Shown piece after piece: positions 1,072 to 20,950 of a stretch of DNA of 37,428 nt. The notes beneath the pieces were generated by a model. The model ran no database searches. It saw nothing but the letters and a program-made list of their open reading frames with translations, and was not told the origin of the DNA. The translations under genes were made by a program, and so were the position numbers. How positions within the stretch are numbered: the first letter of the stretch is position 1; each line of letters begins with the position of its first letter. Origin of the DNA: a virus (Duplodnaviria; Caudoviricetes); IMG/VR virus record IMGVR_UViG_3300045825_000120, positions 1 to 37,428 of that record; one strand, 5' to 3'.

Positions 1072-3358
1072 TGTTTACCCCTGCATGTTGAATACCTACC
1101 GCTCGACCGTTAGCGTCTCTTACCACCACTTTGGGTGCGGTCATTGCCTGCATCATTTGCATCATCATTTGTTGCATGTTTGACTCTTTCATGTCTTCTT
1201 TTTCCGTCTCTTCTATGATTTGTTCAGGTGATTTAATGCCAGCGATTTGTAGTTTCACTGTAGCGTCTAGTTCAGCCTTCCAACGTGCCAAATCTCTATC
1301 AGCTTGTTTGCTGTACTCTTCCATCTGCATACGCTGTTGTTCTTTTTGCGCTTCGAGTTGTGCCTGAAATTGACTATCACGCGCTTGCATCTCTTGCTTG
1401 TTACGTTCTACTTCCATATCGCGCTGCATTTCGCGTTGGTGTTGTTGGTCTTGTACTTGCGCTTCAATCTGTTTTAGCTGCATTTCCTGTTGTGCTTTGA
1501 ATTGGTTTGACTGCGCTGTTCCTTGCTGCTTCATTTGTTCAACTTGCAGCAACGGATTAGGCGGTGGCGGGACTGGAGGCTTACCTCGTGGGTCTTTCAA
1601 GAAATTCTGCACGTCTTTAAAGCCTGCCGCTTCTACAATCTTTGTCTGAGTGTGGTAGATGTTCTCAGGTGTAGTCAATCCCATACCCATCAAAGCCATT
1701 TGATTTTGAGCTATCATTTGCAGTGCTTGAATCTTTTGGTTAGCGTCACCTGTACCAAGTCCGACATTCACGGTCATGTCATATTGGTCACGCCATTCGT
1801 TCGGGTCATATTCCACGAACTCATCACGCAAACGGAAAGCTAGCTTTTCCATGCCGCCATCGGTTAGCAACTTCAACACACCCAAAAACACGGGTTTTAA
1901 CAATATCTCAGCAATGATACGGGCGATTAGTTCTATGCGTTGCTGTGCCGCACTTTGGTCTAATGCTCTACCAGTAGCCGTGTTGTTGAATGAATCAGGG
2001 TTAAGCCCTTGGCTAGTTTTTGAAACACCTGTACGCTCTTCTCGCATGCCTTGGATGTAGTCCAGCATTGGCATAGCGCCACCAGCAGCGAATGGGGTGA
2101 CTAGAGGTTGTACTGCACCTTCACGGGTTTGACGTACAGCACCGCCTGGGCGCATATTCAAAAAGTCATCAATATTTACATAAGGCGAACCTTGAGAATC
2201 AGTGAGGATTGTGTGGCGTGGGCTGTTTGTCAGATAGAGGTTGTTAAGCGTCTGGCGCAACATCTCTGTATGCAGCTTCTGCAAGTCACCCACTAAGTCG
2301 TCTACGCTTAGGCCATCCCAACGATGTGTATTAAGTACGGGCGAGAATGTCGCAAAGGGTACGTGACTACAAATCTCAGTCTTGAGAATCTTAGCATCTA
2401 AGCGATAGACACAGTTTAGTTCCGCAATACCATCGCCATCGATGTCTGCAAGCACGTACTCAATACGCAGATAGCCCTCAGCGAGTGAATCATCATCGGT
2501 ATCGTTATCACCAATACCTTCTAAGTAGTGCCCCGATTGATTCTCTACATTAGTCAGCCGTTCACTTTGGTTTGTAATGTCTGAGGCTCGCAGTTCGTCA
2601 GCTGTAACATCATCAAAACCCATTTGCTTTAGGTCTGACAGTGTGACTTTCATTAACCTAGCTGTGTAAGGACAATCGGCTAATAGTGGTGATGTCCATT
2701 CTCTATCAATCAACAAATCTGCAGGGTTGAAAGCTTCGACCTTGATAATTGTCTTTTCTTCTACCTTTTTGAACCTGCCTGTGTACCCGATTAACGGCGC
2801 ACCCGTCATGGGGTCAATAGCGGGTTGGCCTGTTTGCGGGTCAATTATTGGGGCTTCATTAGCCTCTACAATCTCGCTTCCGTCCTGAGTAAGCATAGCC
2901 AGCATCTCAGGTGTTGCACCCTTAAACGGTACAGAACTAACAACTTCGCTAGTCTCTTTTCGCCACATTACCGCACAGTTCCGCAGTGTTAGCGCGTCTT
3001 TGATAGCAGTGTAGAGGATTAGGAATCCGTTATTTTGCTTGTAGAAAACATAGTTACATGCATCTGTAGCCTGTTCAGCCCCCTTGATGTCATTAGCTGT
3101 TGTTGGCTCGAATGATACGGCTTTATCGGTAGAGGTGAATGTTTTTAACAGTGATGGTAGCAACCATTCAACCGTGTCTTGCACGTCAGAGGTGATGACG
3201 CTTGACCAGCCTTCCTCTTCATTTCCATAGGGTTGTCGGTGATAGGCTCGCATAGCCAGTTCACGGTCTGCGCCTAACGTGCCATGAATGTAATGAGTCG
3301 CAGAGTCTTCCTTGCGACGCAATAGCTCTAGTAACTCGTTTTCATCCATTTTAGCCAT
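1061..3358 (-). CDS. Portal protein (P22-like, Gln-rich coiled-coil C-terminus)
   Basis: 765 aa after TerL; EERTGVS..SQG, TATG, DMTVNVGLG motifs; Q/E-rich tail. Confidence 0.9.
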   Translation of the reverse strand: MAKMDENELLELLRRKEDSATHYIHGTLGADRELAMRAYHRQPYGNEEEGWSSVITSDVQDTVEWLLPSLLKTFTSTDKAVSFEPTTANDIKGAEQATDACNYVFYKQNNGFLILYTAIKDALTLRNCAVMWRKETSEVVSSVPFKGATPEMLAMLTQDGSEIVEANEAPIIDPQTGQPAIDPMTGAPLIGYTGRFKKVEEKTIIKVEAFNPADLLIDREWTSPLLADCPYTARLMKVTLSDLKQMGFDDVTADELRASDITNQSERLTNVENQSGHYLEGIGDNDTDDDSLAEGYLRIEYVLADIDGDGIAELNCVYRLDAKILKTEICSHVPFATFSPVLNTHRWDGLSVDDLVGDLQKLHTEMLRQTLNNLYLTNSPRHTILTDSQGSPYVNIDDFLNMRPGGAVRQTREGAVQPLVTPFAAGGAMPMLDYIQGMREERTGVSKTSQGLNPDSFNNTATGRALDQSAAQQRIELIARIIAEILLKPVFLGVLKLLTDGGMEKLAFRLRDEFVEYDPNEWRDQYDMTVNVGLGTGDANQKIQALQMIAQNQMALMGMGLTTPENIYHTQTKIVEAAGFKDVQNFLKDPRGKPPVPPPPNPLLQVEQMKQQGTAQSNQFKAQQEMQLKQIEAQVQDQQHQREMQRDMEVERNKQEMQARDSQFQAQLEAQKEQQRMQMEEYSKQADRDLARWKAELDATVKLQIAGIKSPEQIIEETEKEDMKESNMQQMMMQMMQAMTAPKVVVRDANGRAVGIQHAGVNNGT

Positions 3359-8247: not shown

Positions 8248-8290
8248 ATTATCTATAGATTTTTTAAGATTTATATTAGGGGAAACCCTA
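8248..8290 (-). promoter_or_regulatory. TAGGG-N4-CCCTA site + 23 bp + GATAAT (-10)
   Basis: Palindrome 8277-8290; -10 hexamer at 8253-8248. Confidence 0.75.
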
Positions 8291-8866
8291 GGTTTTCAGG
8301 TTTTTTAGCTTATTTTTGTAGATTTTTTCAATCTCACGCAAATCGTCCTTAGAGTAATGGTGCAATTTATGGTCACCCTCTAAAGCCTCGACGCGCTCTA
8401 AACCGATTCTTTTAACCAATCCAATTCTGTAATTCGCAGCATTTCCCGAAAGTTGGTTATTACAGTGTTTACATTGTGCATGTGCGTTATCTTCATTAAA
8501 TCTTAAATTCACCCTAGCGCCTACACTTAGCCAGTGACCACAATCGCATACGCCACCAGTAGCCCCGCTATCCCATTTAATAGGACTGTCGCAGCTTATG
8601 CATGGCTTCCCGTAGTCTCGCGCCCGAATGTAGGCATTGAAGGCTATCTGCGTAGCTTTGGTTAGTACGGGTTTTGTCTCGGTAAAAACTTTGAGTTTTG
8701 CTTTAGTCTCTTTTTCCTCTACTTTTTTGCGCTTAGCTTTGTTTATTTCAACTACAGCCATGAAACACCCAAATAAATCACAAATTTTTTGATTTACTCG
8801 CTCTTTTTTAAATGTAGTTTTACAAATAGCGCACTTGTAAGTTTTTGTCAGACTAATGGCTCGCAC
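8288..8866 (-). CDS. ninG: NinG/Rap-family recombination endonuclease
   Basis: CAIC...FNAYIRARD.GKPCISC...DCGHWLSVGA...NAHAQCKHCNNQLSGN..YRIGL. Confidence 0.9.
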   Translation of the reverse strand: MRAISLTKTYKCAICKTTFKKERVNQKICDLFGCFMAVVEINKAKRKKVEEKETKAKLKVFTETKPVLTKATQIAFNAYIRARDYGKPCISCDSPIKWDSGATGGVCDCGHWLSVGARVNLRFNEDNAHAQCKHCNNQLSGNAANYRIGLVKRIGLERVEALEGDHKLHHYSKDDLREIEKIYKNKLKNLKT

Positions 8867-9032
8867 TTAGCCGCTCCTTGACTAATTCAATTACAGCCGT
8901 CGTTGCTGCTTGTCTATCATCTTTATTTGCATAATGATACGTACCCAAAGCAGCCATAACGTTAATTTTCGATATCACTTCATCGTGAATTTTATCCACT
9001 AGCTCGGACTCTTTGCGTGTAAATTCATTCAT
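8853..9032 (-). CDS. Hypothetical protein, 59 aa (not in ORF track)
   Basis: MNEFTRKESELVDK...LSASH; ATGA overlap with upstream gene; fills the gap. Confidence 0.6.
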   Translation of the reverse strand: MNEFTRKESELVDKIHDEVISKINVMAALGTYHYANKDDRQAATTAVIELVKERLSASH

Positions 9033-9361
9033 CTGTGTGTCCTATCTATTTGACGGTTGTTTGCGCTTTCAGTTCTCCAAATCTCTATCTTAGCTTCTGC
9101 CGCTGTTAACTGCCACTTTAGCGTCTCTTCCGACTCTACAGCAACCCGTAAACCGCTTAGCAATGCTATGTAATCAGGGTGTGCGTAAGCGTATATCTCT
9201 TTTGCAGCCGATGTCTTTTCGTCGCTTTCAGCCATCAATAGGGCTTTTTTTGACTTGCGGAACTGTTCAAGGTAAATCCGTTCGCTTTTGGCTTTTGCGT
9301 ACTTAGGCGCATTATCACGAATGAACTCAGCCGCTTTGGTTGGTAGTGGAATATCACTCAT
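9029..9361 (-). CDS. Helical phage protein (possible recombination mediator)
   Basis: 110 aa; YAKAKSERIYLEQFRKS...AYAHPDY...IEIWRT; next to ninG. Confidence 0.6.
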   Translation of the reverse strand: MSDIPLPTKAAEFIRDNAPKYAKAKSERIYLEQFRKSKKALLMAESDEKTSAAKEIYAYAHPDYIALLSGLRVAVESEETLKWQLTAAEAKIEIWRTESANNRQIDRTHR

Positions 9362-9536
9362 TTTTCGTTTCTAGGCTTTTTAGGCGCAATACTTCCGCTA
9401 GTACCAACTCTTTTAGGTTTTTCAGTCCGTGAGGGTCTAAACGCTGGAAGTCTTGTATCGCCCAGTTTGCGTAAGTCTTGTCCAGTTTTGCTGTTTGAAT
9501 TATCGAGTTCACAAACTTTGCTTGGTATGGGGTCAT
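9354..9536 (-). CDS. Hypothetical protein
   Basis: 60 aa; more protein-like than the overlapping 9358..9540 frame. Confidence 0.5.
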   Translation of the reverse strand: MTPYQAKFVNSIIQTAKLDKTYANWAIQDFQRLDPHGLKNLKELVLAEVLRLKSLETKNE

Positions 9537-9539
9537 TCA

Positions 9540-9779
9540 TTATTCGTTCCAGTATCGTTTTTTATATTCTGCAAGCATTGCATCAGCGTAATCAAAAGAA
9601 CTTTCTGCCGTCAATTTGCAAAACCCATCCCAATCGTCCCGAAGCATTGCGTCTTGCTCATAATCAAGTTTTACACTCAATATACCCATCAACGCATTTC
9701 CAGCAAACTGCCTTAACGCCTCCAATTCACCATGTTTTTTATAATTTTTTATCATTTCTTCACTATTTGATTGACTCAT
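9540..9779 (-). CDS. Hypothetical phage protein
   Basis: RQFAGNALMG...SFDYADAMLAE pattern; GGAG RBS. Confidence 0.7.
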   Translation of the reverse strand: MSQSNSEEMIKNYKKHGELEALRQFAGNALMGILSVKLDYEQDAMLRDDWDGFCKLTAESSFDYADAMLAEYKKRYWNE

Positions 9780-9802
9780 TTAATTCTCCAGTTAAAGTTG
9801 AA

Positions 9803-9845
9803 ATTTTGCCTATTATTTTATGAATGTATATTAGGGTTTACCCTA
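9803..9845 (-). promoter_or_regulatory. TAGGG-N4-CCCTA site + 23 bp + CAAAAT (-10)
   Basis: Palindrome 9832-9845; -10 hexamer at 9808-9803. Confidence 0.7.
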
Positions 9846-10545
9846 GATTCCCTATTAAAGTTTTAAATGCTTTTGCTGCAACTTCCGGGTCTTGACCATT
9901 GCCGATAGCTTTAAGTCTGTGTGACCCAAAGGCCACCCCATTAAGTGTTCTGTCCAAGCCGGGTTTATCTTTCCCCCTGCGTGTGTGGCAAGTGATGGTG
10001 TTTTCCGGGTATATTCTGCCGGGTATGCCCCCTCCTTTGCATTGTGTGCTGTAGGGGTAGGCAAGTATGAATAACCTCTCTCGTACATGCTCACCTCCGA
10101 CTGAGGCAGACGAAAACACTCCCCATCTACAGTCATACCCCATCGAGGCAAGGTCACAGATAACTTGGTCAAGCCCTCGAACAATAAGGGCTGGACTGTT
10201 TTCAATGAATGCGAATTTCGGCAGTATTTCCCAAATAATTCTCTTGAATTCTTTCCATAATCCTGATTTATTTCCGTTAATTCCAGCCCCTTTCCCTGCT
10301 GTGCTAATGTCTTGACATGGAAAGCCTCCAGCCACAACGTCAACAACTCCACACCAAGGCTTACCGTCAAAGGTTCGCACGTCATCCCAAATCGGGAAAA
10401 GCGGGAAACATCCATCGTTTTGTCGTGCAACAAGCACGGCCTGTGCGTATGGTTCAAATTCAACGGCGCAGACTGTTCTGTGTCCAAGCAATTGCCCTCC
10501 GAGAATGCCTCCACCAGCGCCCGCGAATAAATGAAGCTCATTCAT
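9838..10545 (-). CDS. C5-cytosine DNA methyltransferase, catalytic (alpha-like) chain
   Basis: Motif I LFAGAGG, IV GFPCQD, VI ENS, VIII RER, X AIGNG; motif IX not evident. Confidence 0.92.
   Translation of the reverse strand: MNELHLFAGAGGGILGGQLLGHRTVCAVEFEPYAQAVLVARQNDGCFPLFPIWDDVRTFDGKPWCGVVDVVAGGFPCQDISTAGKGAGINGNKSGLWKEFKRIIWEILPKFAFIENSPALIVRGLDQVICDLASMGYDCRWGVFSSASVGGEHVRERLFILAYPYSTQCKGGGIPGRIYPENTITCHTRRGKDKPGLDRTLNGVAFGSHRLKAIGNGQDPEVAAKAFKTLIGNLG
9855..10541 (-). CDS. Alternative-frame partner (beta-like) chain of the C5 methyltransferase
   Basis: 228 stop-free codons nested in another frame; LPTPTA and INPAWTEHLMGWP (motif-IX-like). Confidence 0.7.
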   Translation of the reverse strand: MSFIYSRALVEAFSEGNCLDTEQSAPLNLNHTHRPCLLHDKTMDVSRFSRFGMTCEPLTVSLGVELLTLWLEAFHVKTLAQQGKGLELTEINQDYGKNSRELFGKYCRNSHSLKTVQPLLFEGLTKLSVTLPRWGMTVDGECFRLPQSEVSMYERGYSYLPTPTAHNAKEGAYPAEYTRKTPSLATHAGGKINPAWTEHLMGWPLGHTDLKLSAMVKTRKLQQKHLKL

Positions 10546-10574
10546 TTCCTACCTTTTTATGTTTCATGCTTTAA

Positions 10575-10617
10575 ATTTTATATATTATTTTTTATTTTTA
10601 TATTAGGGAAAACTCTA
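10575..10617 (-). promoter_or_regulatory. TAGGG-N4-CTCTA site + 23 bp + TAAAAT (-10)
   Basis: Site 10604-10617; -10 hexamer at 10580-10575. Confidence 0.7.
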
Positions 10618-10620
10618 GGT

Positions 10621-10812
10621 TTACTCTATTTCATTGTCAACAAAATAAAACCCACGCCAAGCCCCATTGTGATGTATTAGCCCTTGCATTCTTGCGTTGT
10701 CCAAAGTCTTGCGAACTTGCTTAATAGGCCATCCAGTTATCACTTGAATGTCGGTTACGCATAAACCGCCGTGGCGTAGCAGTTTGATTAGGGTTTGAGT
10801 TTTGTTTGTCAT
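10621..10812 (-). CDS. Small winged-HTH protein
   Basis: LIKLLRHGGLCVTDIQVITGWPIKQVRKTLDNARMQGLI; apparently leaderless. Confidence 0.65.
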   Translation of the reverse strand: MTNKTQTLIKLLRHGGLCVTDIQVITGWPIKQVRKTLDNARMQGLIHHNGAWRGFYFVDNEIE

Positions 10813-10818
10813 GTAAAA

Positions 10819-10861
10819 ATTTTAGCGCGGCTTTTTTTATTTGCACTAGGGATAAACCCTA
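10819..10861 (-). promoter_or_regulatory. TAGGG-N5-CCCTA site + 22 bp + TAAAAT, leaderless start
   Basis: Site 10847-10861; -10 at 10824-10819; ATG 6 nt downstream. Confidence 0.65.
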
Positions 10862-11271
10862 TGTTTGGACGCTTTAACCCTTAATACATAAATACCTAAG
10901 AGATATAAACCTACTTAACTTCTATTAACTCCAAGGGGCTTCGAGCATACCTAGCCTTTCCTCAATAAAGAAGAAAAGCCTTCAGTCAGTTATCCAGTGG
11001 GGAACATTGACACCCGACAGCCATACGGTTCATAGGTGCTATCTTCGCCGCCTATCTGTGTGCTATTTCAGAACCTTTCCCACCAGTAGCACTTCTCAAC
11101 TAAAACCGCTGTTGACGCTGCTAAGCCCGCCCAGTTCTAATCTAGTCTTTGAGAGTAACTTAAACGCAAAAAAGCCCTTAAAGTTTCTACTCTCCTGCTG
11201 GCACAGTACCTATTTAAAGGTTTGAAAGTAGAGGCTTTAAGGGCTTCTGTTGTCGTTGTGCCAGCAAAGAC
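10862..11271 (-). ncRNA. Candidate structured non-coding RNA / replication-origin region
   Basis: No minus-strand ORF of 60 aa or more; about 8 helices, several needing G-U pairs that form only on the minus strand; upstream sigma70-like promoter. Confidence 0.55.
11168..11246 (-). terminator. Long stem-loop followed by U-tract (terminator/attenuator)
   Basis: AAGCCCTTAAAG..TCTACTTTC pairs with GAGAGTAGA..CTTTAAGGGCTT, then TTTT. Confidence 0.7.
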
Positions 11272-11277
11272 ATAACG

Positions 11278-11307
11278 ACTATAACACACTATTTATCAAC
11301 TGTGCAA
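11278..11307 (-). promoter_or_regulatory. Sigma70-like promoter TTGCAC-N18-TATAGT (extended -10)
   Basis: Read directly from sequence; predicted +1 near 11271, at the start of the first hairpin. Confidence 0.6.
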
Positions 11308-11688
11308 GTTTTTTATCCTTTGCGTTGCTTCACGCACTTTAGCCATCATTTCTGCGCTAGGAGGTGTCCAAGTAGCCTCATGCTTTTTAATCGCCACCAG
11401 CGCGGGATTAAGCACTACTACGGGCGCTTCTGGTATATCACAACCATCCCAACGTTGTTGATTCAAGTAAGTAATAGGCATAGGGATAAAAGCACCTCTA
11501 TCCTTTAGCCAATCAGGTGTTGTTTTCAGCCAAGCAATGTGCTTCAAAATAGTTTCAAGTTGGTTATCATATCCAAACTTAGCCCACTTTGCAGCACACA
11601 TTGATTTAGCAGCTTTTCGTTGGTAGCCGCCTACGGTGTTAGAAGGCCATGCAGCCCAAAATAGGTCAAAGTTATTCAGAGTCTGCAT
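11296..11688 (-). CDS. Replication initiator-like protein, C-terminal domain only
   Basis: FDLFWAAWP...RKAAKSMCAAKWAK...FIPMPITYLNQQRWD resembles the C-terminal module of phage replisome organisers; no N-terminal HTH. Confidence 0.65.
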   Translation of the reverse strand: MQTLNNFDLFWAAWPSNTVGGYQRKAAKSMCAAKWAKFGYDNQLETILKHIAWLKTTPDWLKDRGAFIPMPITYLNQQRWDGCDIPEAPVVVLNPALVAIKKHEATWTPPSAEMMAKVREATQRIKNLHS

Positions 11689-11896
11689 TTAGGTTATCCT
11701 CATTCATTTTATCTATATCTTGGATTTCCTGTATAAATTCATTTATGTTTTCTTGAAATTTAATCAGTTGTTCGATTGTTAACAGTACCAGCATAGGCTC
11801 ATTAAATGTTTCATGCTGTTTAATGCATAAATATCCGCCTTCTGACACGTAAATTTCTGTTTTTTGAGCTTCTTTCATTCTTAAAATCACTTTCAT
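11672..11896 (-). CDS. Hypothetical protein
   Basis: 74 aa; CAGGAG RBS. Confidence 0.65.
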   Translation of the reverse strand: MKVILRMKEAQKTEIYVSEGGYLCIKQHETFNEPMLVLLTIEQLIKFQENINEFIQEIQDIDKMNEDNLNADSE

Positions 11897-11916
11897 ATCT
11901 CCTGTTTAGGGTTAAC

Positions 11917-12117
11917 TTATTTTTTGCTAGGCTTTATACGATAGATTTTGAACGAACCGCTTACGTGCCACTTGTCCTCAATGTCATAGCCTAATTTTCG
12001 AAGTTCTCCTACTCGTGTTGATAGCTTCATCGTGCCAGCTTGTTCTAGGGCTTCAAGGCCGCTTATCCAGCGTTTGAGGGCTTTGAGAATGCGGGAGCGT
12101 TGTGTTTGTTGTTTCAT
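11917..12117 (-). CDS. Winged-HTH protein (HTH_39-like)
   Basis: QRSRILKAL...ISGLEAL...KLSTRVGELRKLGYDI. Confidence 0.75.
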   Translation of the reverse strand: MKQQTQRSRILKALKRWISGLEALEQAGTMKLSTRVGELRKLGYDIEDKWHVSGSFKIYRIKPSKK

Positions 12118-12141
12118 GTTTAATCCTAGTTGAAAAATTAA

Positions 12142-12184
12142 ATTATCTCAGTCTAAATCAATAAATCTATTAGGATAAACCCTT
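12142..12184 (-). promoter_or_regulatory. Degenerate TAGGA-N4-CCCTT site + 23 bp + GATAAT
   Basis: Site 12171-12184; -10 hexamer at 12147-12142. Confidence 0.6.
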
Positions 12185-12371
12185 AGATTTTGCAATGTTT
12201 GATAACATTTGTTTTATCTGACTCATCTTTGCTTGCTATGTGTATTTGATTCTTAGAATCAGCCAAAACAATCTTTTCGCGCTGTGCTTTGGGTGCATTG
12301 GATAGTTGAATGGTTCGCCAGTCGGGGGTTAGCTTGATTTGAGCTGCATAAGTTTTCGAGAATGGGTTCAT
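12183..12371 (-). CDS. Hypothetical protein
   Basis: 62 aa; ATGA-coupled to upstream ORF. Confidence 0.55.
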   Translation of the reverse strand: MNPFSKTYAAQIKLTPDWRTIQLSNAPKAQREKIVLADSKNQIHIASKDESDKTNVIKHCKI

Positions 12372-12532
12372 TTTTTATCTTTCATTTGTTCATGTTTTTT
12401 ATCAATCCAACGTGTAAACCATGCGGTTTTAACTACGCCAGCGCCTCCGTAGTATTGAAATAATTCACGCAGCTTTACCCATGTTTCAGGGGCTAGGCGT
12501 ATCGTGCCTGTGATTGTTTTGGGTTTGTTCAT
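12368..12532 (-). CDS. 54-aa putative ribbon-helix-helix regulator (not in ORF track)
   Basis: MNKPKTITGTIRLAPETWVKLRELFQYYGG...; strand-helix pattern; first gene of the leftward arm; leaderless. Confidence 0.55.
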   Translation of the reverse strand: MNKPKTITGTIRLAPETWVKLRELFQYYGGAGVVKTAWFTRWIDKKHEQMKDKK

Positions 12533-12539
12533 GTGCTAT

Positions 12540-12568
12540 ACTGTAACACACAAAACAAGCCTTATCAA
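12540..12568 (-). promoter_or_regulatory. Leftward sigma70 promoter TTGATA-N17-TACAGT
   Basis: ATG at 12532 lies 7 nt after the -10. Confidence 0.65.
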
Positions 12569-12579
12569 TAAATTTATAC

Positions 12580-12593
12580 TAGGGAAAGCCCTA
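12580..12593. promoter_or_regulatory. TAGGG-AAAG-CCCTA site between divergent promoters
   Basis: Perfect half-sites. Confidence 0.7.
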
Positions 12594-12614
12594 ATAAAAT
12601 AAATTACAAAATAG

Positions 12615-12642
12615 TTGAAGCGTATCACAATAGGCATATAAT
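12615..12642 (+). promoter_or_regulatory. Rightward sigma70 promoter TTGAAG-N16-TATAAT
   Basis: Consensus -10, followed by leader hairpin GCC..GC..GC..GGC and CAGGAG RBS. Confidence 0.6.
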
Positions 12643-12689
12643 TCATACATGCCAAGCAATAACGCAAGGCGATAACAGGAGATTAGACA

Positions 12690-13064
12690 ATGAGCGATTA
12701 CGACAACCTACGCGAAGACGACTACGAACGCAAGCTAGAAGCATCTAACGAAGCCAGAGACGCTTCAATCGAGTTTTACCGTGAGAACTGGCTTACAGCT
12801 GTGACGGTTTCTCCTGAGAAGTCACATGGTAACTTTCCAGATGTGAGCGAATACGTTGGCAAAAACTTTGACCTAAAGCGAGTTTATCGCCCCGCTAATT
12901 CTGTTGATGTATTTTGTGAAGAGCTAAACAACAATGATTTTATGGCTCGAGCTGCAAAGATATTGATTAGCCTGCAAGGGTGTGGAAGCAATAGGATTGA
13001 CCAACTATTTGACGACATGGCAGAAAGCTATGCTGAAAATCAATACGAACAATCACAGGAGTAA
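12690..13064 (+). CDS. Acidic early hypothetical protein
   Basis: 124 aa; strong RBS. Confidence 0.75.
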   Translation: MSDYDNLREDDYERKLEASNEARDASIEFYRENWLTAVTVSPEKSHGNFPDVSEYVGKNFDLKRVYRPANSVDVFCEELNNNDFMARAAKILISLQGCGSNRIDQLFDDMAESYAENQYEQSQE

Positions 13065-13067
13065 ATT

Positions 13068-13322
13068 ATGCGAGCACCAATAGGAAGTACCCTAGCCCTC
13101 GGGTTAATCTCAGTTATTATGCTAATCGGGCTTGAAAAAGCCCATGATAGCGAACTAGCAGAAGTCCATAAAGACGGCGTGGCAGTAGGCTACAAGTTGG
13201 GTCAAGCTGATTTAACCGAGAAAATGACTAAACGAGTGACATCTGAAAAGTGTATGTCGTTTTGGTTTTCTGATAACCCTACGAGAGTAGGTGAAGCAAT
13301 TAAAAAGGTGAAACTGCAATGA
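13068..13322 (+). CDS. Membrane-anchored hypothetical protein
   Basis: N-terminal hydrophobic helix; CAGGAG RBS. Confidence 0.7.
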   Translation: MRAPIGSTLALGLISVIMLIGLEKAHDSELAEVHKDGVAVGYKLGQADLTEKMTKRVTSEKCMSFWFSDNPTRVGEAIKKVKLQ

Positions 13323-13747
13323 AAGAATTTAATCATCAGGATATTTGGCGCTTACATGGAACTGATTTTTTGGTGACCGTAGTACGCACAACAGTTGATG
13401 TATCACCTGAATACAACTTTGACAACTTAGGTTCAAATCGATGGGCAGTTTATGCCTACATCTATCCGAAGCATACATGTTTCGCAGGATTTGATGATTC
13501 TGGAATGTTTCAAGATGCTGCAAGGGCTTTGCACTTTCATGGTGGGCCGTCATTTTTACAGTTTCACTTTGACAAAGCTGGCAAAAAACAGAGTGTTCAA
13601 GTAGGCGCGGATTACAACCACTTGTATGACGAGGAATATTCATATTACGCAACCAAAGATGATGCATTTCGAGTGTTTGACGATGCTGTGCAGTTGTATG
13701 CATACCTGCAAAAAATGCAGGAAATAGCGAAGGATTTAATCAAATGA
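13319..13747 (+). CDS. Phage protein with HGG...G.D..H motif
   Basis: FHGGPSF...VGADYNHLYD. Confidence 0.7.
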   Translation: MKEFNHQDIWRLHGTDFLVTVVRTTVDVSPEYNFDNLGSNRWAVYAYIYPKHTCFAGFDDSGMFQDAARALHFHGGPSFLQFHFDKAGKKQSVQVGADYNHLYDEEYSYYATKDDAFRVFDDAVQLYAYLQKMQEIAKDLIK

Positions 13748-13932
13748 ACTGCTGTAACTCTTTTGGACAATGTACTCAGGGCTTTAACTGTCCAGCCCAT
13801 GCACAAAAATATGATGAAAAAGACGATGCACCGCCACTTGGCTATTGTCATGACTTTTTAGCTATGCTTGCAATATGGGTTCTTGGTATCGTGCTTGGAA
13901 TTGTCGGAACTATTTTGTTTTTACTAGGGTAA
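13744..13932 (+). CDS. Cys-rich small membrane protein
   Basis: MNCCNSFGQCTQGFNCP plus C-terminal TM helix. Confidence 0.65.
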   Translation: MNCCNSFGQCTQGFNCPAHAQKYDEKDDAPPLGYCHDFLAMLAIWVLGIVLGIVGTILFLLG

Positions 13933-13967
13933 TCCCTAATATGAATTTATTTTTTTAAGCGGATAAT
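13925..13967 (+). promoter_or_regulatory. TAGGG-N4-CCCTA site + 23 bp + GATAAT
   Basis: Site 13925-13938; -10 hexamer at 13962-13967. Confidence 0.75.
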
Positions 13968-13988
13968 TTTAGATTTACAGGGGAATAT

Positions 13989-14093
13989 ATGATTGATTTT
14001 TTTAAACTTTATAAACTCTATCGAGTAGCCCACGGACGCAAATATGCCTTGCACCGTGCTTATGAAATTACTTTTAAGGGGATTCCATTTTGA
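13989..14093 (+). CDS. 34-aa peptide (not in ORF track)
   Basis: [34 protein letters not shown]; AGGGA RBS; TTGA overlap with erf start. Confidence 0.55.
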   Translation: MIDFFKLYKLYRVAHGRKYALHRAYEITFKGIPF

Positions 14094-14728
14094 ACATTTA
14101 CGAAAAACTAAACTTAGCTAGGGAAATATTCCACAAAACCGAACTAAAGAAAACAGGTTACAACTCGTTTGCAAAGTATTACTATTTTGAACTCGGTGAT
14201 TTTCTAATCCCTGCGCTTAAAATTTTCAAAGAGGTTTCATTGTGCGCGATTGTCTCATTCGATAAAGACATTGCAAAAATGACCATCATTGACATTGAAA
14301 AGCCAGAGTCAACCATCGTACTGACTAGCCCTATGGGTAGCGCCGCACTAAAGGGTTGCCATGAGGTGCAAAACATTGGGGCAGTAGAGACATACCAAAG
14401 ACGCTATTTATGGGTTGCAGCGCTTGAAATCGTGGAGCATGATGCATTGGACGCGACTACTGGCAGTGACAAGCCAAAAGCCCCGATTATCCCAGCAAGT
14501 CCAAAAACCGACGACCTAGGGCTTACCGCTGACCGCTTGGCAATTGTTCAACTGGTAGCGGAAAACATCAAAGAATTGTTTACTAAAAACGATATTGTCG
14601 GGGCTTATGAAGAGCGTATTGGGGTTATTGACGGTGATGAAATCATTGCTTTAAACAATCTTTTAGACTCTAAAACTCGCTCGGCACTCAAAACCCATCA
14701 TCAATCACTTCAACCAAAGAAAGCATAA
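14090..14728 (+). CDS. erf: ERF-family single-strand annealing protein
   Basis: [18 protein letters not shown]...[14 protein letters not shown]...EHDALD. Confidence 0.85.
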
Positions 14729-14730
14729 AA

Positions 14731-15048
14731 ATGAGCAACTATGACCAAACCAACTCAGGTATCCTTTCGCGCAATGACCGCAAAGAAAAAGAGACGCACC
14801 CAGACTTCAAAGGTTCTATCAATGTAGAAGGCCGCGAGTATTGGCTATCAGGATGGGTTAAGACTAAAAAAGACAATTCAGGCAAGTTTTTTAGCCTCTC
14901 AGTCAAAGCAAAAGACGAGCAACCAGCCAAGGCTATACCAATGCCAACAAAGGCGCGTACAGGCGGTTCTAGTGGATTTGAAGATATGGACGATGACGTG
15001 CCCTTCCGTGACCCACTAGCAAACCGAGCTTACAGTTTAGCAATTTAA
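14731..15048 (+). CDS. Single-stranded DNA-binding protein (DUF736-like)
   Basis: [20 protein letters not shown] core; DMDDDVPF acidic motif near the C-terminus; follows erf. Confidence 0.75.
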
Positions 15049-15190
15049 CGAACATGTAATGAAGTCAATCTCCTCCATAATCCCCCGCTAATTATGCAAT
15101 GTTTCCGATGTTTACCCACAAAAGGCAAATCAAAAGCACTGACTTCTACCATCGCGTTCATGGTGCTAAATCGGTTACGAGCGGGTTACT

Positions 15191-15233
15191 TAGGGTTTCC
15201 CCTAGTATCTATTTAAAAAATAGTCTATAAAAT
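15191..15233 (+). promoter_or_regulatory. TAGGG-N4-CCCTA site + 23 bp + TAAAAT
   Basis: Site 15191-15204; -10 hexamer at 15228-15233. Confidence 0.75.
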
Positions 15234-19204: not shown

Positions 19205-19717
19205 ATGAGCAAAGAAATTTTAACACATGAATATCTAAAATCAATACTGCATTACAGCATCATTACAGGTCAGTTTTGCTACTTACGGTCAACTGCACAA
19301 TGCGTAAAAATTGGCGCTGTAGCTGGAACTTTATCTACTAACGGCTATAACTATATAAAAATAAACGGGACTCGCTATTCTGCACATCGTCTAGCATGGT
19401 TTTGGGTAACTGGCGAATGGCCTGCAAATCAGATTGACCACACAAATGGGGTTAGAGATGCTAATTGGTGGCTTAATATGCGAGAAGCTACTTGCTCGCA
19501 GAATTGCTGTAACACCAGAAAACATATTGATAATACCAGCGGCTATAAAGGGGTTTTCTGGGAGGAAAGGCGTCAAAGGTGGCGGGCAAGCATCATGCTA
19601 AATAGGAAATCTAAACATCTTGGTTATTATGCGACGCCTGAGCTAGCCTATGCTGCGCGAATTAAAGCTGAAAAATCTATGCACGGAGATTTTTCGCGCG
19701 CTGTAATAAATCAATGA
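19205..19717 (+). CDS. HNH-AP2 homing endonuclease 1
   Basis: AHRLAW...IDHTNGVRDAN...NMRE..SQN plus NTSGYKGV..WRASI..HLGYY AP2 domain; antisense to the lysis operon. Confidence 0.9.
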   Translation: MSKEILTHEYLKSILHYSIITGQFCYLRSTAQCVKIGAVAGTLSTNGYNYIKINGTRYSAHRLAWFWVTGEWPANQIDHTNGVRDANWWLNMREATCSQNCCNTRKHIDNTSGYKGVFWEERRQRWRASIMLNRKSKHLGYYATPELAYAARIKAEKSMHGDFSRAVINQ

Positions 19718-20440: not shown

Positions 20441-20950
20441 ATGAGCGAAAGCATTTTAACACATGAATATTTAAAAGAACACCTTCATTACAGCGTAATT
20501 ACTGGCAAGTTTTATTGGCTAGAATCAGCGTCAAAAAGAATTAAAACCAATGATGTAGCTGGAAATTTAACATGCAAAGACTACCGTAGAATTAGAATAA
20601 ATGGTAGTAATTATTTTGCCCATAGACTAGCATGGTTTTGGGTAACTGGCGAATGGCCTGAAAAGCAGATTGACCATAAAAACAGGATAAGAGACGATAA
20701 CTATTGGCTAAATATTCGGGAAGCTACGCAGTCTCAAAATAATTATAATAAAGGCATTAGCCCAACTAATTCTAGCGGATTTAAAGGCGTTTATTGGTAT
20801 AAGACTTACCAAAAATGGCGAGCTAATATTAGAATAAATGGGAAAAAGAAACATCTAGGCTACTTCGATAGCCCAGAATTAGCACATAAAGCCTACGTAA
20901 AAGCAGGAAAAGAGCATCATGGCGAGTTTTTTTTGGCTAATCCGCTCTAG
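20441..20950 (+). CDS. HNH-AP2 homing endonuclease 2
   Basis: AHRLAWFWVTGEWP..IDHKNRIRDDN..NIRE..SQN; NSSGFKGV..WRANI..HLGYF. Confidence 0.9.
   Translation: MSESILTHEYLKEHLHYSVITGKFYWLESASKRIKTNDVAGNLTCKDYRRIRINGSNYFAHRLAWFWVTGEWPEKQIDHKNRIRDDNYWLNIREATQSQNNYNKGISPTNSSGFKGVYWYKTYQKWRANIRINGKKKHLGYFDSPELAHKAYVKAGKEHHGEFFLANPL

Follow-up and report, generated by a model that had tools for sequence, protein, structure and literature searches.

Initiators of the lambda O type (DUF1376 and HTH_36 types) bind to iterons. In the plasmid ColE1 the rG stretch is located a long way upstream of the dC stretch, giving the two the geometry of a direct repeat; no paper on the exact geometry of the two stretches was found. 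RNA II opens the ColE1 origin without an encoded initiator (PMC5043065), and pairing of the rG stretch of the RNA with the dC stretch of the template is described as essential for the R-loop (PMC4412123). The T4 origins oriF and oriG combine a promoter with an unwinding element and form a persistent hybrid (PMC4412123); no large conserved RNA fold is described for them in the available part of that source, and T4 brings its own replisome. Structured elements of 200-350 nt, namely ARRPOF, GEBRO and PAGEV, are found in plasmid replication regions (PMC5737381), and the pseudoknot-rich ARRPOF is located in a region sufficient for Rep-independent replication (PMC12990946).

The window, i.e. the whole stretch of DNA that was analysed, is a whole virus record of 37,428 bases. 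Its sole Rfam match is located on the minus strand at 11012-11141 and covers model positions 1-120 of RF02932 (Betaproteobacteria-1) with 89.7 bits against a cut-off of 49.4. In Rfam the family is typed as "Gene; sRNA" with no function given, and no paper on it was found by family name or accession; it presumably stems from the same motif survey as ARRPOF, GEBRO and PAGEV. The term "Betaproteobacteria" is absent from the main text of PMC5737381, while a comment on gene context may stand in its supplement. Literature searches on phage origins, non-coding RNA and R-loops returned nothing on such an element. A preliminary description of this region had proposed an RNA-based origin akin to ColE1 RNA II and had named a match to a known, unrelated RNA family as an argument against it; the core does turn out to be a known family, but one without known function. 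The element is a member of RF02932, and not of the ColE1, ARRPOF or lambda O families. It shares P1, P2 and P3 with the RF02932 model, which lacks the 3′ domain and the repeat described below and whose printed consensus shows three nested helices only, and the context found here is that of phage replication modules, as opposed to the generic small RNA of Rfam. By analogy, the element may work like ColE1 RNA II: both would be promoter-driven structured RNAs ahead of an unwinding zone (predicted here), both do without an origin-binding initiator, and RNA-to-template pairing, as proposed here, would be needed for a persistent hybrid in both. By contrast, Rfam revealed no homology to RNA I or RNA II in sequence or structure, the element is ~210 nt long compared to 550, it has a variable 6-9-nt repeat instead of the rG/dC stretch, and control is assigned to a predicted leader terminator instead of RNA I. 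Furthermore, it belongs to phages with an adjacent C-terminal-only initiator gene or their own primase, whereas ColE1 encodes no initiator. ARRPOF, GEBRO and PAGEV, for which there is likewise no Rfam match, are plasmid elements, and the available parts of the sources describe no co-varying direct repeat for them. With lambda O-type modules the locus has in common the C-terminal domain and the slot between the regulatory genes and the nin region, but the N-terminal domain and the iterons are missing, and the structured element fills the neighbouring space.

A PHROG scan covering 59 of the 118 window ORFs of at least 60 aa revealed portal, terminase, capsid, NinG, Erf, SSB and methylases, and detected no helicase, primase or polymerase among these 59. 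On the minus strand the HTH_39 protein is followed by a 74-aa ORF, the 130-aa mini-initiator, the promoter-like site, the leader with its long hairpin and U-tract, the element, the small HTH gene and a methylase; methylase and NinG genes lie downstream of the element (Table 1). The region had been described as devoid of a credible ORF and, indeed, the minus strand has none of at least 60 aa within 10862..11160, while a 72-aa ORF on the plus strand (11007-11225) has no PHROG or Pfam match. A hidden coding frame was rejected, since the conserved words are not in the same frame in L004 as in L006, and the corresponding frame of the window contains a stop. The neighbouring protein had been described as initiator-like but lacking a DNA-binding domain, and it matches only the C-terminal part of its profiles, namely positions 186-248 of 288 (phrog_9474), 177-248 of 383 (phrog_270) and 171-248 of 276 (phrog_9327). 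The mini-initiator family is real, with 46 homologues of 76-133 aa, and 149 proteins of at least 234 aa carry this domain behind a longer N-terminus, which in some of them is DUF1376. The predicted structure of the mini-initiator (model pLDDT 81.7) has no Foldseek match at E 0.001, the sequence has no match in the PDB, and the best fold score (Z 4.5, to SPP1 G39P) is within background, as is everything that the fold searches returned regarding a DnaT/DnaD-like fold. No iterons inside its gene (11296-11688) were seen among the 20 largest repeat families shown.

Table 1. Features of the element and its surroundings, in window coordinates.
Feature	Position	Strand	Basis
Small HTH gene	10621-10812		PHROG/Pfam
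TAGGG-N-CCCTA palindrome	10847..10861	.	Pattern search; 1 of 7 window copies
A+T-rich tail, G-skewed on the RNA strand	10862..10929	-	Composition
3′ domain outside the Rfam model (GTCA/TGAC helix base, variable hairpin 10980-10953, two repeat copies)	10930..11011	-	Conservation and covariation
Repeat copy R2, CCCC-T-TGGA	10930..10938	-	Sequence reading
Repeat copy R1, CCCC-AC-TGGA, weak subtype	10993..11002	-	Sequence reading
P1	11139-11132/11101-11108	-	Covariation
P2	11092-11088/11060-11064	-	Covariation, Rfam consensus
P3	11055-11051/11032-11036	-	Covariation, Rfam consensus
Pseudoknot	11111-11109/11084-11086	-	Covariation
Pseudoknot (helix 5)	11075-11071/11027-11031	-	Covariation
Pseudoknot (helix 6)	11042-11038/11017-11021	-	Covariation
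Long hairpin and U-tract	11165..11248	-	Inverted repeat of 23 nt, 87%; -37.9 kcal/mol
Small leader hairpin	11250..11279	-	Fold
Promoter-like site TGCACA-17-TATAGT, TG before -10	11278..11306	-	Consensus scan only
130-aa mini-initiator, stand-alone C-terminal domain of O-like phage initiators	11296..11688	-	PHROG profiles
66-aa winged-helix protein (HTH_39)	11917..12117	-	Pfam PF14090, E 1.2e-07

A search with a pattern for the core yielded 120 viral loci (RF02932 is rare, with ~140 stretches in the viral collection). Together with the window and five earlier loci these entered an alignment, in which 115 loci had enough flank and 76 remained at no more than 90% identity. Mutual information and pair counts revealed six helices, three of which are pseudoknots, and all three consensus helices of RF02932 (P1, P2 and P3) are kept in the window element. 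In 50 of the 76 non-redundant loci, 84.6% of the cells of the six helices are paired compared to 65.9% after shuffling, and the covariation score is 0.466 compared to 0.154 for shuffled and at most 0.145 for slid controls; covariation among the homologues is strong. The six pairs of helices 5 and 6 that never vary were fixed by the search pattern and hence are uninformative, but the free position of helix 6 is paired in 76 of 76 loci with five pair types (z 24.5), and in Acidovorax phage AP1, found by BLAST independently of the pattern, further positions of helix 6 change in step. Folding of single sequences, by contrast, provides no evidence of structure, because the 299 nt of the region are not predicted to fold more stably than shuffled sequences, whichever strand is taken (minus strand z +0.37, plus strand z +0.42); across 40 loci of the family there is likewise no signal (mean z -0.64 sense, -0.53 antisense).

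The structure is real and in part catalogued, though not as first drawn. All the strings quoted in the preliminary description are present in the sequence. Its helix GTGCTA/TAGCAC (11092-11087 with 11065-11060) is 85% paired, with five of five counted pairs compensatory, and ATAGG/CCTAT (11055-11051 with 11036-11032) is likewise supported by the homologues. The base of the GTCA/TGAC helix covaries (11011G-10985C, z 11.8), and GGCTTTTCTTC/GAGGAAAGGCT holds, in a by-eye reading of the locus listing, as a hairpin position of variable length. For ACTAGA/TTTAGT a helix does exist at this place but the register was wrong, since covariation pairs TAGAACTG at 11139-11132 with 11101-11108. The helix proposed to close the junction (GGCT-G-TCGGGT/GCTCGA-AGCC) is not supported, as 11021-11017 pairs with 11038-11042 instead, in the pairing that has the best support of all, and its downstream segment is a same-sense copy rather than a complement. 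The pseudoknots 11111-11109/11084-11086 and 11075-11071/11027-11031 were absent from the drawing. The minus strand had been preferred on account of G-U pairs, a weak argument considering that the sense strand gives the better fold in only 22 of 40 homologues; the strand itself stands by virtue of the Rfam match and the co-orientation with the neighbouring genes.

Conservation extends ~80 nt beyond the end of the Rfam model, and in this 3′ domain several columns co-vary as identical letters, not as complements. A word of 6-9 nt follows GGCTCC and is found again 45-75 nt further on, after CCACC or TCACC. In the 71 of 76 loci that could be parsed, the two copies of a locus match over 6.8 nt, compared to 4.6 nt between loci and 5.13 nt in the best of 10,000 permutations. 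Moreover, among 121 loci of the main subtype there are 48 non-overlapping close pairs, which differ at 126 positions of copy 1; at 84 of these positions copy 2 has changed along with copy 1, and at 22 it is unchanged. These 121 loci contain 44 different repeat 6-mers, some of which differ between loci with 88-98% identical cores, and among bacterial-genome loci the repeat is present in 41 of the 46 parsed. Target-site duplication is an unlikely source, the two copies residing in conserved but different flanks of one element. No strict complement of the repeat is enriched on the RNA strand at any offset up to 2.5 kb (54 loci), and a single wobble-allowed bin at -1600 (11 vs 5.4) was taken as chance. 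Since no RNA-strand complement recurs, the partner of the repeat would be the template strand (or an antisense RNA). Mismatches between the copies in the viral set (62 of 71 loci, first position excluded) are G-over-A or U-over-C in 32 cases and the reverse in one, an asymmetry that fits wobble pairing of copy 1 to the template of copy 2, but that is confounded by the A-rich linker ahead of copy 2 and does not recur among the bacterial-genome loci (5 vs 3). The repeat of the window itself is weak, with a longest exact shared run of 4 nt that falls below the threshold of the repeat test; similarly weak repeats are seen in L090, L192 and L199. The AT-rich tract was described correctly, 10862-10935 being 69% A+T, with a skew of +0.39. 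In the family the G-skew of the tail averages +0.27 and is positive in 55 of 71 loci, compared to +0.02 upstream of full-length initiators. From its composition, the tail is predicted to serve as the unwinding and hybrid zone.

The RNA had been tied specifically to the mini-initiator. However, RF02932 as its dedicated partner was rejected, as it was present in none of 20 mini-initiator loci by Rfam and in none of 81 by profile. Five other large conserved elements (types B-F) occupy 72 of these 81 loci and none of 80 loci with full-length DUF1376 initiators. In a non-redundant set with 1.5-kb flanks they are present at 46 of 51 C-terminal-only and 0 of 51 full-length loci, an absence that is partly by construction, since the B-F profiles were built from mini-initiator loci, and that refers to a control set not matched for host or habitat. 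A model-free measure was added for this reason: a gap of at least 300 nt is found in 42 of 51 mini-initiator loci compared to 11 of 51 full-length loci (p 7e-9). Among 41 near-complete genomes, chosen for the RNA or the mini-initiator, the 17 with a mini-initiator hold only the short initiator ORF, and the 24 with RF02932 hold four short initiator ORFs and no full-length one of the DUF1376 type. Conversely, 23 genomes with full initiators contain neither RF02932 nor type C, a weak result given the rarity of RF02932. The link is one of class, between large elements and C-terminal-only initiators. RF02932 for its part is mostly found behind primase genes.

Type C (L016:2995-3190, L212-L291) has a conserved core of ~175 nt followed by a TATCCACCCT..AACCTATG hairpin module, accounts for ~240 stretches in the viral collection, and shows compensatory pairs in 30 loci. 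A C-terminal-only initiator accompanies it in 63 of 80 loci, and a full-length one of the same family in none. No Rfam match was obtained for type C at E 1 (L016), nor at E 0.1 for seven loci covering types B, D, E and F and two singletons. Viral structured RNAs have been catalogued (PMC10690425); the type C motif is absent from six supplement files of this catalogue, whereas types B-F may be listed in the remainder. Type E, a 233-nt element (L024, L027, L034, L056, L059, L062, L066, L072, L078, L085), shares with RF02932 the 3′ module GGCTCC-word...TCACC-word, a kinship seen by eye, as the profile of the RF02932 type does not match it; single-base changes in type E loci occur in both repeat copies. 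A perfect TTATCCACA lies between the type E repeats in seven of the eight loci shown. From its consensus we take this to be a DnaA box. Around RF02932 such boxes are not enriched (two perfect ones in 76 loci at +40 to +300), and none was found near the window element. Type B comprises L001, L002, L030 and L049, type D comprises L013 and L079, and type F comprises L055, L065, L077, L081 and L083, while the singletons L025 and L036 occupy the same slot. In several loci RF02932 is likewise preceded by the 60 nt with which type F begins.

Upstream of the element, the claim of its own promoter stands insofar as a promoter-like site exists at 11306-11278, but the scan returned nine sites compared to 5.4 ± 2.4 by chance, so that the site is not above chance. 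The attenuator proposed there has a real counterpart in the long hairpin and U-tract (11248-11165) and in the loop of the small hairpin, 11265-11257, which is exactly complementary over 9 nt to 11205-11197. Although the terminator scan missed it, the long hairpin with its U-tract is predicted to be a terminator gating transcription into the RNA. The 9-nt loop complement links the small and the long hairpin into a candidate leader switch (11197-11279, minus strand), and in the leaders of type C the corresponding words seem to vary in concert.

The general idea of an RNA-based origin gains support because of the covariation and the co-varying direct repeat without an RNA-strand partner, together with the G-skewed tail. 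It gains further support because initiators lacking the N-terminus are nearly always flanked by a large conserved element and because the 41 near-complete genomes contain no full-length DUF1376-type initiator, even though the specific link to the mini-initiator drawn in the preliminary description does not hold. We give a probability of about one half to the reading that the transcript acts in cis to open the origin by an R-loop, as ColE1 RNA II does, and replaces the missing origin-binding domain of the initiator. In keeping with this reading, the cultured Acidovorax phage AP1 has a helicase, a primase and the RNA in this order, with a 7-nt repeat. From the observed anatomy, comprising the fold, the repeat, the lack of an RNA-strand complement, the G-skewed tail, the gene context and the class-level exclusion, we infer the following course. 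Transcription would start at 11306-11278 and continue past the leader terminator whenever pairing of the 9-nt loop permits. The core would fold co-transcriptionally and keep repeat copy 1 near the polymerase, so that copy 1 could pair with the template once copy 2 has been passed ~45-75 nt later, preventing the duplex from closing. A persistent RNA-DNA hybrid might then extend through the purine-rich tail, and either the RNA end would prime synthesis or the displaced strand would take up a helicase. The C-terminal-only protein could recruit the host helicase, while in other phages a phage helicase and primase would load directly. Against an origin stand the location of some copies among late genes, the 29 chromosomal copies that occur solo and the weak repeat of the window. 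More tentative, with odds somewhat below even, is a wider scheme in which at least six unrelated or distantly related "RNA initiators" of 175-350 nt (RF02932 and types B-F) share one slot and replace the origin-binding domain, RF02932 and type E open an R-loop via a programmable 6-9-nt repeat, and a stripped initiator domain or primase loads the fork, in many temperate and small tailed phages of Betaproteobacteria. The pair-wise repeat test is new here, as are the solo copies, the set of interchangeable elements B-F and their exclusion from full-length initiators. If the R-loop reading is true, the orphan family RF02932 would obtain a function, and the start of replication would be explained in complete phage genomes that have only half of an initiator and in which no helicase, primase or polymerase can be recognised. 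The range of ColE1-type RNA priming would also come to include a widespread group of phages whose several RNA folds are exchangeable, and an R-loop RNA that targets itself through a variable address could serve as a programmable origin.

The same exclusion from full-length initiators would be predicted if the element were a protein-binding origin signal, recognised by a split initiator (winged-helix and C-terminal genes) or directly by the primase, with no RNA-DNA hybrid; the repeats would then be binding sites in DNA, single-stranded DNA or RNA, and the fold a scaffold or a signal for single-strand loading. Indeed, DNA binding could be supplied in trans by the 66-aa HTH_39 protein (11917-12117), a further HTH gene lies at 10621-10812, and small winged-helix/HTH genes are also found beside homologues. 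Moreover, a short primase gene that itself follows a helicase gene is the neighbour of the RNA in 31 of the 80 viral RF02932 loci with full flanks, and in 23 of these the stop codon of the primase abuts the RNA. However, a turnover of 44 6-mers in 121 loci, with changes between 88-98% identical cores, is fast for a protein specificity, solo cassettes keep the repeat without such a gene nearby, and none of the 20 largest repeat families is an iteron family inside 11296-11688, so that we regard protein binding as unlikely. The remaining neighbours in the 80 loci are a primase-helicase (five), a helicase (one) and a C-terminal-only initiator match (11, one of them weak); 32 loci have no replication gene by the gene clusters used. 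To these 32 belong late-gene copies, at least L128 (after the terminase) and L149 (before a capsid gene), as well as L090, which has a second C-terminal-only O-like family nearby. The short ORF directly behind RF02932 in L090 (2625-3002) matches only the C-terminal part of phrog_678 and resembles by eye an ORF in the same position in L109 (~2650-3011), whereas that in L089 (2627-2971) has no match.

Its place behind a promoter and a terminator and ahead of the methylase and NinG genes, as well as the copies among late genes, would also suit a transcription-control RNA, that is a put-like antiterminator or a switch that modifies RNA polymerase for downstream read-through. A G/C-then-U tract precedes 20 of 35 non-primase RF02932 loci, compared to one of 18 primase-abutting loci and only four of 74 full-length initiator starts. 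This reading, which we consider quite unlikely, leaves the link to N-terminus-less initiators and the fixed position at the primase stop unexplained, and solo copies have no consistent downstream gene.

In bacterial genomes 56 pattern matches were obtained, 52 of which are true members, 12 of them with a primase and 40 with neither primase nor mini-initiator. Twenty-nine (within L413-L467; Paraburkholderia, Caballeronia, Burkholderia) are solo promoter-plus-RNA cassettes of ~400 nt, in which a conserved -10-like box (TATACA/TATACT), the RNA and the tail are embedded in unrelated flanks with ragged ends; five of the 29 lack copy 2. The cassettes support transcription, yet they are unexplained by the origin model and may represent remnants, decoys or a sign of mobility. 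Together with the compact three-pseudoknot core and the presence of 1-4 copies in each of five Burkholderiaceae genomes, the ragged ends and unrelated flanks could point to a stand-alone catalytic or mobile RNA, a ribozyme or trans-acting module that docks the two repeats in turn, in which case host copies would be selfish or anti-phage decoys. We find this more doubtful again, since the cassettes show no terminal inverted repeats or sharp ends, no internal guide is complementary to the repeat, and no ribozyme family matches. An antisense RNA might also have the two repeats as its paired targets, in the manner of P1 C4 or P4 CI immunity, and the element would then be a regulated leader. This is very improbable, since no RNA-strand complement lies at a recurring position within 2.5 kb and neither C4 nor isrK matches in the window, even if such systems typically contain direct repeats that co-vary and the upstream leader carries a loop-loop complement. 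No small Rep-less plasmid carrying RF02932 was found, the only plasmid match being on a 1.5-Mb Burkholderia plasmid, and 10900-11160 has no plasmid match. In four contigs with several pattern matches all copies lie on the same strand.

Seven TAGGG-N-CCCTA-type palindromes start at 8277, 9832, 10604, 10847, 12580, 13925 and 15191, all within 8277-15205. They span both early arms of the window and are likely to be an operator. Downstream of the element, two minus-strand ORFs, 9838-10545 (235 aa, a C5 methylase) and 9855-10541 (228 aa), overlap fully, and similar same-strand overlaps recur downstream of mini-initiators at other loci. Further away, two HNH endonuclease genes on the opposite (plus) strand, at 19205-19717 and 20441-20950, flank the endolysin gene.
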